A stretch of DNA of 13,632 bases. It comes from a virus. Numbering within the stretch: position 1 is the stretch's first letter; every line of letters starts with the position of its first letter. The stretch lies in UHGV virus genome UHGV-1808101; one strand, 5' to 3'. The position numbers were made by a program, and so were the translations under genes. Shown here one piece after another: positions 257-5,076 of the stretch. The notes beneath the pieces were generated by a model. It saw only the letters and a program-made list of their open reading frames with translations. It was not told the DNA's origin and did no database searches.

Positions 257-389
257 TTTTGGGAACTCCTGGCTGATTAAGTATGTCGATAAGGCGTTTC
301 CATCCGTCACGTAATTTACGGGTGATTCGTTCAAGTAAAGATTCGGAAGGGCAGCCAGCAACAGGCCACCCTGCAATGGCATATTGCAT
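249..389 (-). CDS. cIII: CIII (FtsH/HflB inhibitor that stabilises CII), 46 aa
   Basis: Not in the ORF track (<60 aa). Minus-strand ATG at 389 preceded by AGGAG; translation [46 protein letters not shown] matches recalled lambda CIII over its N-terminal 46 residues. Confidence 0.8.
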   Translation of the reverse strand: MQYAIAGWPVAGCPSESLLERITRKLRDGWKRLIDILNQPGVPKNG

Positions 390-454
390 GGTGTGCTCCT
401 TATTTATTTACACATAACGAAAACGCCTCTAGTGAAGCGTTATTGGTATGCATA

Positions 455-1298: not shown

Positions 1299-1682
1299 TC
1301 ACCTCGCCGTCAGTTGTTTTGATTTCCGGTAGCCTGCCGCGTAAATGGCTACGTTTGGAAGACATACACCAGTTTCTGGTTGCTTATGTCCAAACTCATT
1401 CGCGTACACAATGGCTGCTCGCTCCAGATTGCGTCTGTATTCTTTCTGTTGCCAGATCACGTCCTGTGCCATGAACTTAATTGGCTTAGCGTCTTCTATG
1501 CGCTCAGGCGTTTCGTGAGTACCTTTAGCCTGAATCTGCGCTCTGCTTAGAGTAGGGCGGTGTAATACTTCTGAACTTATTGCTTCTTCGCGGGCCAGTA
1601 CGCAGTTAGCTAATGCCTTTGCCTTTAAACGCTCACGACGACGAGAACGTGAATTGCCTTTGAACTGAGTTCTGCGTGTCAT
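1299..1682 (-). CDS. N: Antitermination protein N, P22 gp24-like type (127 aa)
   Basis: AGGAGG Shine-Dalgarno 6 nt upstream; N-terminal arginine-rich motif GNSRSRRRERLKAKA; C-terminus VAIYAAGYRKSKQLTAR resembles recalled P22 gene 24 protein (…ALYAAGHRKSKQITAR); first gene downstream of pL/nutL. Confidence 0.7.
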   Translation of the reverse strand: MTRRTQFKGNSRSRRRERLKAKALANCVLAREEAISSEVLHRPTLSRAQIQAKGTHETPERIEDAKPIKFMAQDVIWQQKEYRRNLERAAIVYANEFGHKQPETGVCLPNVAIYAAGYRKSKQLTAR

Positions 1683-1959: not shown

Positions 1960-2142
1960 TACAAAATGTTCTAAATATGATTAGTTTTTTATAACGTTTT
2001 GTATTTTATGGGGTTATATTTTGCAGGGTTGAGTGGCTTGGGAGGTGATCGAGAGATCTGAATTGCGATGTTTAGTGAGTTGTATCTATTTATTTTTCAA
2101 TAAATACAATGAGTTATGTTTTTTAGGTGGGGGATCGCGAGG

Positions 2143-2169
2143 CAAAGAAAACCCGGCGCTGAGGCCGGG
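2143..2169 (-). terminator. Rho-independent terminator ending the cI-linked minus-strand operon
   Basis: Minus strand: CCCGGCCTCAGCGCCGGG hairpin (6-bp GC stem) followed by TTTTCTTTG, immediately after the stop of the 206-aa ORF. Confidence 0.55.
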
Positions 2170-2177
2170 TTAATGCG

Positions 2178-2798
2178 TTAATGCTGGGGAGTGATTTTTT
2201 TGTTGTCTGTTGGCTGGGTATTTTGTGGCGGCGCTTGCAAAGTGGAAGGCTGTTGCAAAGGTGCGTGGTCTGACTTTAAAGCTGATACCAGCCCGGGAAT
2301 CGCAACTATTACAGCGATAATGACACTAAAAATGGCTAATCGTATAGAAATACCCGACTGAACACCACTAATTGCGGCATTAACCCCTGTTATTTGTCCT
2401 TGAATTCCTTCGAATCTCCCATTAATTGCTTTTATATCGCCAGCAGCGCTATCCATCTTTCCATCGATCTTGGACGATAGAGAGCTTATGGCTGCATTAA
2501 GTGATGCAAATTGGACATTAACGCTTTCACGAGATAGAGCCATGTCAGCCCTAATGGAGGAAGCAATAGACTCCATCTCTGCTTTATTAGCAGCTAAGCG
2601 AGCATCAAGTTCCTCTCTGCTGATCGTTCCCACTTCTTCCTCCGTTTGTGGCGGTTTTATGTAATTATTTTGCACCTTGGTGGGAGAATTATCAAATTCA
2701 GCCTCAAAATCAGAACCGCCAACAACCTTCAACCTCCGGCTTTCAGATATGTTGGTGTCTTGCTTTCCATGATTATTTAAATTACTGTCGTCACTCAT
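2178..2798 (-). CDS. Hypothetical membrane-anchored coiled-coil protein, 206 aa (third gene after cI)
   Basis: ORF with ATG overlapping the upstream stop (ATGA coupling at 2795..2798); hydrophilic N-terminus, Ala/Ser-rich heptad-like central region, one hydrophobic helix LAIFSVIIAVIVAIPGLVSAL, and a Pro/Gln-rich C-terminal tail. Confidence 0.65.
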   Translation of the reverse strand: MSDDSNLNNHGKQDTNISESRRLKVVGGSDFEAEFDNSPTKVQNNYIKPPQTEEEVGTISREELDARLAANKAEMESIASSIRADMALSRESVNVQFASLNAAISSLSSKIDGKMDSAAGDIKAINGRFEGIQGQITGVNAAISGVQSGISIRLAIFSVIIAVIVAIPGLVSALKSDHAPLQQPSTLQAPPQNTQPTDNKKITPQH

Positions 2799-3229
2799 AA
2801 TAGCTCTACGGTGAAAAATGATTCATTTTTATGAAGTTCATTTTTAGGGTCTTCATTATCTTGCAATATCCCTATAACACTATACAGCCCTTTAGCTGGG
2901 ACCCTAATTTCTTTCAATGTTACTATTACCTGTCCGCCAACCCCTGTTTCAAAATGGCTATCTTTCGTATCGATGAAAAGTGAAACTGATTCCGAAGAGC
3001 CGTCAGGGAATTGAATTTCCTCACCTTTTTTTATAATTAGGTGCGCGGGGATTACCATAATACCCAAATTATATCTTGAATTTGGTTTCAACCCGATCAT
3101 ACCAACCCTGAAATCAATTGATAGCCGCGCAGGAAATTCATTGCATGTAAAATTAAGCGTCGGTTGGTTGGGTTCTTCGCTGCTATCAAATGGGGTTATA
3201 AAAGATATTCTTTCTAAATTAAGTGCCAT
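2795..3229 (-). CDS. Hypothetical protein, 144 aa (second gene after cI)
   Basis: Start moved to MALNLERISF (ATG at 3229) because AGGAGA lies 5 nt upstream; the longer track ORF (start 3283) lacks a comparable ribosome-binding site. No motif recognised. Confidence 0.6.
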   Translation of the reverse strand: MALNLERISFITPFDSSEEPNQPTLNFTCNEFPARLSIDFRVGMIGLKPNSRYNLGIMVIPAHLIIKKGEEIQFPDGSSESVSLFIDTKDSHFETGVGGQVIVTLKEIRVPAKGLYSVIGILQDNEDPKNELHKNESFFTVELL

Positions 3230-3299
3230 AAATTCTCCTGCATCGCTGTATGCTCTACGAGCATCTCTGCGACCATCCATCATCCAAACGTCTCTTCAC

Positions 3300-3641
3300 T
3301 CATCCGAAGAAGCAGCAATCCGGGTCAGCACGCACAAGCTCAAGCGCATCAGTCAGCGAAAGTTCAGTACTGTACTGATGCCATTTCATATCCTTCCGCA
3401 TCCAATAGATTTTCCATCTATCCAGAGAACGTATGTACTTGATTCTTGCTGATGGCAGGATGTTTGTTTCACCTGGGTTGCCCTGCCACACGGGGCGCTG
3501 TTCGCCGATATCTATCGTTTGGTCATTGATGCTATAAACAATATCCAGTTCATTGCGGATATGTTCAGGCGGCCTTATGCTTTCAATGAATTGGTGAACT
3601 TCTTTTTTGACCGCTTGATATTCAAGGTCAGTGAACGCCAT
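3300..3641 (-). CDS. Hypothetical protein, 113 aa (first gene after cI, rexA-like position)
   Basis: ATG 10 nt after the cI stop with a GAGGAGGA Shine-Dalgarno overlapping the cI stop codon; no motif recognised. Confidence 0.65.
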   Translation of the reverse strand: MAFTDLEYQAVKKEVHQFIESIRPPEHIRNELDIVYSINDQTIDIGEQRPVWQGNPGETNILPSARIKYIRSLDRWKIYWMRKDMKWHQYSTELSLTDALELVRADPDCCFFG

Positions 3642-3650
3642 CTATCCTCC

Positions 3651-4310
3651 TCACCCAAACGTCTCTTCAGGCCACTGGCTGGCGATAACTTTCCCAACAA
3701 CGGAACAACTCTCATTGCATGGGATCATTGGGTACTGTGGGTTTAGTGGCTGTAGAAACACCTGACCACTATCCCTGATCAGTTTCTTGAAGGTAAACTC
3801 ATCACCACCAAGTCTGGCTATGCAGAAATCACCTGGCTCAACAGCCTGCTCAGGGTCAACAAGAATTAACATCCCGTCAGGAAAACTGGGTTTGGAACCT
3901 GTTGGTGCGGTCATTGAGTTACCTTCAACCTCAAGCCAAAATGCAGAATCACTGGCTTTTTTGGTTGTGCTTACCCATCTCTCCGCATCACCTTTGGTAA
4001 AGGTTCTAAGCTCAGACGAGAACATCCCGGCCTGAACATGAGAAAAAACAGGGTACTCATATTGTTTTTTAACGGGGGCTGATGAGCATTCGCCAACAGG
4101 TGAAAATGTACCGTCGTGGTTGAATGAGACGTTATTAATACCAAGGTACTTAAACACCACACCAATCTCGTCAAGAGATGGATGACGAGATCCGCGCAAC
4201 CAGTGACCAATTCCACCCTGCGTCATACCAAGCTCTTCAGCTAACTTCTCTTGAGTTATGCTGAGTTCTTTCATTCTGGATCTAGCCAGTTCATACCATT
4301 TCATTTTCAT
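3651..4310 (-). CDS. cI: CI prophage repressor (helix-turn-helix N-terminal domain plus LexA/S24-type autocleavage C-terminal domain)
   Basis: C-terminal ~135 residues ([15 protein letters not shown]…[12 protein letters not shown]) match recalled lambda CI, including the Ala-Gly cleavage region; N-terminal domain ([37 protein letters not shown]…) is a different helix-turn-helix. Start set at 4310 (GAGGGT Shine-Dalgarno; leaves ~110 bp for oR) rather than the track start at 4373. Confidence 0.9.
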
Positions 4311-4367
4311 ACCCTCATTATTACGCTCCGTACTAAAACCATCCATGCACAAGATGTATTTTTTCGA

Positions 4368-4396
4368 TTGCATTCCAAAAGTACATATCGTATTAT
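4368..4396 (+). promoter_or_regulatory. pR promoter with overlapping operator oR1 (-35 TTGCAT, 17-bp spacer, -10 TATTAT)
   Basis: Plus strand TTGCAT-tccaaaagtacatatcg-TATTAT; spacer and -10 carry AAGTACATATCGTATT, matching the pL operator consensus AAGTACA-N-ATCGTAYT; cro ATG 27 nt downstream. Confidence 0.55.
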
Positions 4397-4422
4397 TGTT
4401 TCATGGTTACTATGGAGGGCAT

Positions 4423-4638
4423 ATGAGCAACCTACGAAAATATCGAGAGTCACTGAAGATCTCTCAAACAACCCTTGCTAAGGCTGTTGGATGCACACAG
4501 GGGGCTATCGGACATTGGGAATCTGGTCGTCGCTTCCCAGACCTTAAAACATGCCGTGCTCTTGTTGCGTGCCTAAACAAGTTCGGCGCAAAAGTCAGTC
4601 TTGATGACGTGTTCCCGCCGGAACACCAAGCCGCTTAA
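4423..4638 (+). CDS. cro: Cro-like repressor, 71 aa
   Basis: GGAGGG Shine-Dalgarno then ATG at 4423; helix-turn-helix segment ISQTTLAKAVGCTQGAIGHWESG; divergent from cI across oR. The track ORF 4258..4638 is an upstream in-frame extension. Confidence 0.8.
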   Translation: MSNLRKYRESLKISQTTLAKAVGCTQGAIGHWESGRRFPDLKTCRALVACLNKFGAKVSLDDVFPPEHQAA

Positions 4639-4679
4639 TAAGCGGATCCACTCTTTTCACAATGGACATTCGTCCTACG

Positions 4680-4694
4680 TCGCTGACAAAGCGA
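4680..4694 (+). promoter_or_regulatory. nutR boxB hairpin (UCGCUGACAAAGCGA)
   Basis: Same GACAA-loop hairpin as nutL boxB, lying between cro and cII; boxA-like CACTCTTTT at 4649..4657. Confidence 0.5.
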
Positions 4695-4779
4695 GTCCCA
4701 ATATATCTGACCAACTAAGGCCATATGCGTTTCCACGCATACCTTTCAACTAACTATTCACTATTGGAAATATTAAGAA

Positions 4780-5076
4780 ATGACACAAACAAGTTACAGC
4801 AAACTATCCCAGCGCGACGTTGATCGCGCAGAAACGGATTTACTCATCAACCTGTCAACGCTTACCCAGCGCGGTCTGGCAAAGATGATTGGCTGTCATG
4901 AATCGAAGATAAGCAGAACGGACTGGAGATTTATTGCTTCGGTCCTGTGTGCTTTCGGAATGGCATCAGACATCAGTCCGATTAGCAGGGCTTTTAAGTA
5001 TGCGCTTGATGGAATCACCAATAAAAAACGCCCGGCGGCAACCGAGCGTTCTGAACAAATCCAGATGGAATTCTGA
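4780..5076 (+). CDS. cII: CII transcriptional activator (lysogeny establishment), 98 aa
   Basis: C-terminal …[19 protein letters not shown] matches recalled lambda CII; helix-turn-helix in the centre; position after cro/nutR. Confidence 0.85.
5022..5048 (-). terminator. OOP-like antisense RNA terminator (tO) inside the cII 3' end
   Basis: Minus strand CGCTCGG-TTGCCG-CCGGGCG 7-bp stem (one G-U pair) followed by TTTTTTATT; same arrangement as lambda oop antisense to cII. Confidence 0.55.

Follow-up and report, generated by a model that had tools for sequence, protein, structure and literature searches.

Three small genes lie directly downstream of the cI repressor gene in UHGV virus genome UHGV-1808101, and together they fill the position that rexA and rexB hold in phage lambda. 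The DNA analysed is a stretch of 13,632 nt, referred to here as the window. A lambdoid prophage in the Escherichia coli SCU-104 chromosome (NZ_CP053284.1), inserted beside mlrA, contains an identical stretch. The minus strand of the window carries, in order, N (1299-1682), a pL-like promoter (1931-1959), an intrinsic terminator (2150-2171), genes 3, 2 and 1, and cI (3651-4346). The plus strand carries cro, cII, O, P, the nin region and Q. The genes are numbered from cI, so that gene 1 is next to the repressor gene and gene 3 is next to the terminator.

The three genes have the same orientation as cI and occupy the space between its stop codon (TGA at 3651-3653) and the terminator. An initial annotation had described three open reading frames (ORFs) of 113, 144 and 206 amino acids (aa) on the strand of cI, a ribosome-binding site overlapping the cI stop, an ATGA overlap between the last two genes, and an intrinsic terminator after them, and each of these features was found. 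The ribosome-binding site of gene 1 reads GAGGAGGA, and the ATG of gene 3 overlaps the stop codon of gene 2 as ATGA at 2795-2798. The terminator consists of an 8-bp stem with six GC pairs followed by TTCTTT, and its position matches that of the terminator after rexB in lambda. The same terminator scan gave no comparable terminator between cI and this stem-loop. Homology of the whole unit to that of lambda suggests that the three genes are co-transcribed with cI from pRM.

Sequence conservation identifies the three ORFs as real genes and not chance ORFs, because each has an end-to-end match to a PHROG family (E 4.5e-67, 3.3e-50 and 1.3e-75 for genes 1, 2 and 3), and because homologues of each protein keep their length down to 35-45% identity. 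All of the PHROG families are of unknown function. Gene 2 is annotated as 144 aa both by the Prokaryotic Genome Annotation Pipeline (PGAP) and in the record of phage HK542. A 162-aa reading of gene 2 from a start at 3283 is probably unused: this start lies inside a relic of the cI end, the PHROG match begins only at residue 21, and a Shine-Dalgarno sequence precedes the internal ATG that begins the 144-aa form.

The comparison with lambda indicates that the three genes occupy the rexAB slot in the strict sense, since both flanks are homologous to the lambda sequences that enclose rexAB. On one side the 3' half of cI (window 3651-4061) shares 95% identity with the corresponding part of lambda cI by blastn. 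On the other side window 2014-2172 is 87% identical to lambda 35676-35828, which extends from the oL side up to the rexB stop and includes the terminator. This left flank is common to lambda, HK542, a Shiga toxin 1 (Stx1) phage, and the 933W-type and RMDEC465 prophages. Phage HK542 and the immunity-region record of HK244 are 99% identical to lambda rightward from the cI stop and 92% identical up to the rexB stop. In these phages rexB and rexA are replaced junction for junction by genes 3 and 2, and gene 1 is absent. The placement at the rexAB position made in the initial annotation is thus upheld, as is its description of the cI-adjacent slot as a hotspot for exclusion cargo, since the slot elsewhere holds rexAB or, in 933W-type prophages, a PD-T4-6-like kinase. 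Both flanks enclose other cargo in the 933W-type, Stx1-phage and further E. coli prophages. Besides rexAB and the kinase, the known cargo includes ParA-like ATPases, an NYN-domain protein, and two other, unrelated pairs made up of a small soluble protein and a tail-anchored coiled-coil protein. The G+C content of genes 2 and 3 is 0.38-0.43, below the 0.45-0.48 of cI.

The repressor gene next to the slot is a mosaic in these alignments, with a lambda-like 3' half and a 5' half and operators like those of Stx phages. The Stx1-converting phage AP005153 is 90% identical to window 3261-4800, which covers the whole cI gene and the operator and cro region. Across the loci surveyed, repressor C-terminal ends recur with differing N-terminal DNA-binding parts. 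Coordinates of the features are collected in Table 1.

Table 1. Features of the cI operon and its flanks in the window.
Feature	Position	Strand	Evidence or remark
Conserved left flank of slot, oL side to terminator	2014..2172	not assigned	blastn
Intrinsic terminator closing the cI operon	2140..2171	-	terminator scan; within the block 87% identical to lambda 35676-35828
Gene 3, 206-aa membrane protein	2178..2798	-	phrog_5820 (1.3e-75)
Gene 2, 144 aa, upstream member of pair	2795..3229	-	AGGAG at 3235-3239, 5 nt ahead of ATG
Relic copy of cI 3' end, GTGAAGAGACGTTTGGATGATG	3278..3299	-	compared with CTGAAGAGACGTTTGGGTGAGG at 3649-3670; about 20 nt, near-copy, right after gene 1 stop
Gene 1, DUF3024 protein, 113 aa	3300..3641	-	Pfam PF11225 2.4e-31; PADLOC PDC-S43 7e-42
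Ribosome-binding site of gene 1, GAGGAGGA	3645..3652	-	read from sequence; overlaps cI stop, 3 nt before gene 1 ATG
cI repressor, helix-turn-helix (HTH) and S24 peptidase	3651..4346	-	Pfam Peptidase_S24 1e-28, HTH_3 2e-9; PGAP 'LexA family protein'

A recombination seam and the distribution of the genes among genomes indicate that the trio consists of two separable cassettes. The blastn alignment of HK542 DNA covers window 2014-3298 and resumes at 3648-4061, and DNA of 933W-type prophages aligns to window 3261-3678 with 98.6% identity. These breakpoints, together with the relic of the cI end that follows gene 1, place a gene 1 cassette of about 350 bp between two copies of the cI end. The relic has the form of a classic lambdoid mosaic joint and marks the seam between gene 1 on one side and genes 2 and 3 on the other.

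The counts in 5,426 complete E. coli genomes agree with this division. Gene 1, which belongs to the DUF3024 family, is found in 227 genomes, genes 2 and 3 in 51, and all three in 18. A different combination, DUF3024-DUF6978-DUF1828, is found in two. DUF3024 lacks the pair in about 209 of its 227 genomes, and the pair lacks DUF3024 in 33 of 51, as it does in the free phages HK542 and HK244. The trio was originally proposed to be a single three-gene system, and this proposal is contradicted because DUF3024 and the pair are far more often apart than together. The 933W-type kinase cassette is found in 223 of the genomes with at least 80% of the query covered, but the query passes this threshold even without its DUF3024 part, so all that the figure tells is that an attachment to this cassette is possible for most copies of DUF3024.

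Gene 1 is a full-length member of a family that has been catalogued as a candidate for defence. It matches the Pfam family DUF3024 (PF11225) with 108.7 bits against a cut-off of 24.9, residues 4-113 aligning with positions 2-112 of the 112 in the profile. It also matches the PADLOC hidden Markov model PDC-S43 (E 7.2e-42), with residues 1-113 on positions 1-115 of 115. PDC-S43 is a computational candidate only. In the literature it was found named in one paper, within a list of predicted systems, with no report of activity found, and no paper mentioning DUF3024 was found. The initial annotation had recognised none of the three proteins. Gene 1 can now be assigned, and genes 2 and 3 are still without a Pfam, NCBIfam or PADLOC assignment. 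The AlphaFold2 model of gene 1 (pLDDT, the predicted local distance difference test, 89) has a helix, a five-stranded sheet and a second helix, and the product is predicted to be a small soluble alpha+beta protein.

DUF3024 heads many different sets of cargo. Most often it is the 933W-type kinase cassette, and not genes 2 and 3, that comes after it. At 72 IMG/VR loci carrying DUF3024, the genes that follow were surveyed. In 28 of them they encode a 153-aa protein, a protein kinase matching the PD-T4-6/mad6 models, and a 54-aa ORF. A 177-aa protein is found downstream in about 18, the gene 2-3 pair in 12, ParA-like ATPases of two kinds in six, and an NYN-domain protein in one. The remaining type, found at two loci, is a pair of a small soluble and a tail-anchored coiled-coil protein that is unrelated to genes 2 and 3, and both copies lie directly after S24 repressors. 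Judged from its gene neighbourhoods, gene 1 is an independent single-gene cassette that is translationally coupled to cI. In the Stx1 phage AP005153 (locus L002, 3046-3347) the DUF3024 gene is frameshifted, lies in two reading frames, lacks about the first 11 codons, and is unannotated. DUF3024 fragments of 84 aa are common in the protein database.

The family also occurs outside the cI slot. In Erwinia, Rahnella and IMG/VR contigs DUF3024 is part of a cargo cluster with dinI-type genes and a small lipoprotein of the DUF333 type (L011, 3071-4342; L013, 3089-4342; L128, 574-1343; L130, 959-1569). In Erwinia, DUF3024 is followed by the same 153-aa, kinase and 54-aa set that is found in the 933W-type E. 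coli prophages. The three proteins of this set are 86%, 77% and 79% identical, respectively, and DUF3024 itself is 59% identical.

By the conservation of their order, genes 2 and 3 form an obligate pair. A homologue of gene 3 directly follows the homologue of gene 2 in all 41 loci surveyed, and in E. coli copies that are 100% identical the start and stop codons overlap by the same single base. About a dozen different repressor N-termini are found directly ahead of the pair or the trio, including those of lambda cI, S24-type repressors, and small Rac-like repressors accompanied by ydaS/ydaT-type genes. Relatives at 30-40% identity also lie directly after S24 repressors and have the same arrangement, an immunoglobulin (Ig)-like gene and then a coiled-coil gene with one C-terminal transmembrane (TM) helix, with stop and start codons that mostly overlap or are a few bases apart. 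DUF3024 is absent from all divergent pairs of other genera in the locus survey.

The family is small. A profile search with gene 2 against 1.84 billion representatives gave 24 matches, about 15 of them proteins of 136-153 aa, and a scan of GTDB species representatives found a single locus with the pair. The most remote gene 2 relative (E 5.6e-4) is in a myovirus tail/baseplate module, where it is overlapped by a gene for a 108-aa tail-anchored coiled-coil protein, and this points to an autonomous two-gene unit. The upstream partner of a gene 3 relative in Pectobacterium is an unrelated protein of 99 aa, and the N-terminus of this relative is unrelated as well. The same architecture of a soluble and a tail-anchored coiled-coil protein recurs downstream of DUF3024 in L125 and L129 (about 3840-5000 in each) and also in L008 (4683-5780) and L059 (4001-4751). 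The versions in L125, L129 and L008 are in the same repressor-adjacent slot and are unrelated or only partly related in sequence, and that of L059 is the distant relative of the pair in the myovirus tail module.

The predicted architectures are those of a cytoplasmic protein and a membrane protein. The product of gene 2 is predicted to be a cytoplasmic, all-beta Ig-like sandwich. Gene 3 encodes a variable N-terminus (aa 1-59), an Ala/Ser-rich coiled coil with a heptad pattern (aa ~60-150, nt 2349-2621), one TM helix (aa ~154-174, nt 2277-2339), and a Pro/Gln-rich tail (aa 175-206). The best 19-residue hydropathy window starts at residue 156 and has a mean of 2.7. This layout had already been described from the sequence in the initial annotation, with a hydrophilic N-terminus, and the alignment and hydropathy confirm it. 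Gene 3 has no signal peptide and has about 150 hydrophilic residues before the TM helix, so its N-terminus would be cytoplasmic and its tail periplasmic. The coiled coil is probably oligomeric.

Conservation in the gene 3 family is concentrated in the coiled-coil/TM core. The N-terminus and the tail vary, and the tail is missing in some relatives. A strongly conserved segment, SREELDA-LAANKAE-ESIAS-R-EMA, leads into the coiled coil, within which the alignment has insertions and deletions of +7, +14 and -7 residues. The motif L-[KR]-V-[VI]-x-G-[ST]-x-F is found in 12 of 18 gene 3 N-termini and is absent from the Pectobacterium relative. It may, speculatively, be a docking site for the gene 2 product. 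A constant core with a varying N-terminus, and the loss of the motif where the upstream partner is unrelated, would fit a modular sensor and effector.

Searches with the three proteins gave no assignment to the ordinary functions of a phage. PHROG, Pfam and NCBIfam contain no confident match to structural, replication or lysis proteins for any of the genes, so the homology to structural or housekeeping proteins that the initial annotation had named as evidence against its proposal was not found. The sole link to structural genes is the tail-module relative of gene 2, which is still paired with a tail-anchored coiled-coil protein. Sequence searches of the PDB with all three proteins gave nothing significant, and structure prediction gave generic folds only. 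In PADLOC-DB v2, gene 2 has no match and gene 3 matches only LmuB, at E 0.014. Assignment of gene 3 as a MakE/SmhB pore toxin, SlaB, Baculo_PEP_C or LmuB was rejected, as these are sub-threshold coiled-coil or compositional matches. The literature searched contained no mention of six protein accessions tied to these genes.

The pair resembles lambda RexAB in position and organization and differs from it in sequence. Both units extend from the cI stop to the terminator between homologous flanks and are co-oriented with cI. Both consist of one predicted cytoplasmic and one membrane protein, presumably expressed with cI in the lysogen. However, the best BLASTP match of genes 1-3 to RexA has an E value of 0.08 over 16 residues, there is no match to RexB at E <= 10, and no Rex-related Pfam or PADLOC model is matched. 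RexA has 279 aa, in contrast to the 144-aa Ig-like sandwich of gene 2. Whereas RexB is a polytopic membrane protein, gene 3 combines a long coiled coil with one TM helix at the C-terminus.

Other known systems share parts of the arrangement. The Stk kinase cassette of 933W-type prophages has the same slot and the same DUF3024 leader gene, but its cargo consists of a 153-aa protein, a 348-aa protein kinase and a 54-aa ORF, and there is no kinase in the window. According to reports summarised in PMC3564112, the 933W kinase gene is transcribed together with cI and its product aborts infection by HK97. In phage 434, hex is the first gene after cI on the pRM transcript, overlaps or abuts the cI end, and has exclusion and lysogen-stabilising phenotypes (PMC3564112). 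By blocking the RecA-stimulated cleavage of the repressor, Hex makes spontaneous induction about 30-fold less frequent (PMC3564112). Its sequence is not related to those of the three proteins, the best BLASTP match to any of them having an E value of 0.94, and when translated it has a hydrophobic, signal-like N-terminal segment. Like type II toxin-antitoxin systems, the pair has two small coupled genes, in the presumed order of upstream keeper and downstream effector. The ATGA overlap recurs in the close family, and the remote pairs overlap or abut. Unlike these systems, gene 2 is Ig-like without an HTH or ribbon-helix-helix domain, and gene 3 matches no toxin family. Gene 3 also has the coiled coil and single C-terminal TM helix of tail-anchored proteins of the CCDC90-like/DUF1640, DUF1664 and Baculo_PEP_C types. 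Most members of its family have sub-gathering matches to these Pfam families, a likeness that is compositional and architectural only.

The explanation favoured here, although tentatively, is that the 1.5 kb from cI to the terminator is an accessory slot with two cassettes, in which the pair is a lysogen-expressed, membrane-acting, Rex-like abortive-infection unit. It builds on the arrangement of the genes, the identity of the slot, the two-cassette make-up, the obligate pairing, and the architecture and fold class predicted for the proteins. We infer the mechanism, including the interaction between the gene 2 and gene 3 products and the anti-phage activity. Both proteins would be made stoichiometrically in the lysogen, and the gene 2 product would sit on the N-terminal segment of the gene 3 product as a sensor or keeper. 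The coiled coil and the variable N-terminal segment would face the cytoplasm, placing the complex at the cytoplasmic face of the inner membrane. A superinfecting phage would supply a trigger, upon which the coiled-coil/TM protein would compromise the inner membrane and the infection would be aborted. Such a unit would be Rex-like in function with a toxin-antitoxin-like order, the keeper upstream and the effector downstream.

Several observations weigh against this explanation. The hotspot position amounts to guilt by association, and genes after cI may act otherwise, as 434 Hex does (PMC3564112). Genes 2 and 3 match no significant Pfam, NCBIfam or PADLOC model. The predicted Ig-like fold of gene 2 is generic and silent on function, and all matches of gene 3 to coiled-coil Pfam families and trimeric coiled-coil structures are below threshold. 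In the remote relatives at loci L052 and L061 the coiled-coil/TM half is swapped for an unrelated coiled-coil/TM sequence, which would be as compatible with a membrane tether as with a specific pore-former. Genes 2 and 3 are also rare, being found in 51 of the E. coli genomes and at one locus of the GTDB representatives. No experiments on the three proteins turned up in a literature search that did not include the prophage defence screen of Brenes and Laub (2025, Cell Host Microbe). Overall, the sequence comparisons suggest that the pair is accessory or exclusion-type cargo of the cI operon, built from proteins unrelated to characterised systems, and a defence role is plausible.

Two close rivals give the pair a different activity. 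One is that it has a function in the lysogen other than defence, such as tuning of induction and lysogen stability or a role in envelope physiology. This is rather unlikely, although 434 Hex, which directly follows cI on the pRM transcript, reduces induction (PMC3564112), and the pair has no homology to any defence model. Its very tight linkage to repressors across distant relatives could also mean a repressor-related role and not merely a convenient promoter. However, the pair follows small, non-S24 Rac-like repressors as well as S24 repressors, so a role in RecA-stimulated cleavage cannot be general. The most remote pair is in a tail module far from any repressor, and the known cargo of the slot consists of exclusion genes. 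The other rival, for which there is a still smaller likelihood, is non-lethal superinfection exclusion, with gene 3 tethering the Ig-like protein under the inner membrane on a stalk of about 13 nm, where it would intercept an ejected phage protein or the entering DNA and block genome entry. The inner membrane is where several known prophage exclusion proteins act, and binding is a typical role of Ig-like domains. A comparison of L052 with L053 shows, in addition, that an unrelated coiled-coil/TM half can stand beside a retained N-terminal segment and gene 2 partner, suggesting that tethering and not a specific pore is the conserved property. Harder to reconcile with an entry block is that conservation within the close family is highest in the TM helix and the coiled coil next to it, which would be unusual if they formed a mere anchor. 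The periplasmic tail is short, low-complexity, and variable or absent.

The remaining alternatives concern gene 1. That all three genes make up one three-component system is very improbable and is largely refuted by the distribution. They are co-oriented and coupled with one terminator. Copies of the trio with 99-100% identity follow five different repressor N-termini, and 18 complete E. coli genomes contain it. Against this, the cassettes are mostly apart, HK542, HK244 and the divergent pairs of other genera have no DUF3024, and the cI-end relic is a recombination joint between genes 1 and 2. A separate suggestion, possible but doubtful, is that DUF3024 is a small binding protein that modulates a partner and not a stand-alone defence effector. 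It might act on RecA or the repressor in the manner of Hex, PsiB or DinI, or as an accessory or adaptor of the cargo that follows. Its tight coupling to cI and the many unrelated cargo sets that it heads are consistent with such a role, as are the retention of the DUF3024, 153-aa and kinase order in Erwinia outside the cI slot and the second recurrent context beside dinI genes. Nevertheless dinI genes are frequent prophage cargo, so this co-location may be incidental, and PADLOC lists DUF3024 as a defence candidate. The frameshift in AP005153 and the common 84-aa fragments show that it is dispensable.

A wider proposal extends the abortive-infection explanation. Genes 2 and 3 might be an undescribed two-protein anti-phage system, with a membrane-tethered Ig-like sensor on a tail-anchored coiled-coil effector, that is naturally interchangeable with rexAB in immunity regions otherwise the same as that of lambda and is one of several such pairs, unrelated to one another, in the slot. 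DUF3024 would then be separate and would work with or regulate the cargo that follows it. This version is speculative, and in its full form it is doubtful.

Other parts of the window also have features of regulatory or accessory type. The N-like ORF (1299-1682, minus strand) encodes an intact 127-aa antiterminator with an arginine-rich N-terminus and is 98-100% identical in many related loci, and PGAP annotates in this region only a 69-bp pseudogene fragment of an 'incomplete regulator'. A lambda cIII thermoregulator RNA element (88.5 bits) is at the start of the cIII gene (344-402, minus strand). On the plus strand, Rfam matches at 8816-9014 identify a C4 antisense RNA, an a1/b1 target, and isrK. 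They lie directly upstream of two antirepressor-type genes (9067-9771 and 9840-10568), which encode a P22AR C-terminal domain protein and a phage antirepressor. This locus in the nin region looks like a C4-controlled antirepressor module of the P1/P7 type. Genes for a TerB-family protein and a small DUF3927 membrane protein (11970-12634, plus strand) directly follow the Q antiterminator gene, where the late operon seems to have a further slot for cargo. Between Q and the TerB gene, at 11799-11868 on the plus strand, Rfam gives a weak tRNA-like match (32.6 bits, E 0.0013), and ARAGORN called no tRNA in the whole window. The STnc100 small RNA family is represented by two full-length copies downstream of Q (12700-12905 and 13183-13392, plus strand; 141 and 166 bits). 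They are in a stretch without long ORFs, ahead of a gene for a SASA-family esterase that lies beyond the window.

Every lysogen expresses the genes that are transcribed together with its prophage repressor. Lambda rexAB, the founding case of phage exclusion, has a mechanism that is still under debate. In phages that keep the repressor and operators of lambda itself, an unrelated two-gene unit has naturally taken the place of rexAB. Near-isogenic comparisons are possible because HK244 and HK542 are free phages that have been sequenced. The result is unsurprising to specialists, yet it is directly testable with existing phages, as a natural replacement of rexAB in a lambda-immunity background. 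DUF3024 (PDC-S43) is mostly found at the head of other cargo, and this bears on how such defence candidates are read. If the pair excludes phages, it would be a new membrane-acting defence architecture and would support the cI-to-terminator slot as a defence hotspot that can be searched by its conserved flanks. If such pairs do recur as anti-phage units, they would represent a general design for repressor-linked exclusion modules. If the pair does not exclude phages, it would join Hex as evidence that the slot also serves the maintenance of the lysogen.

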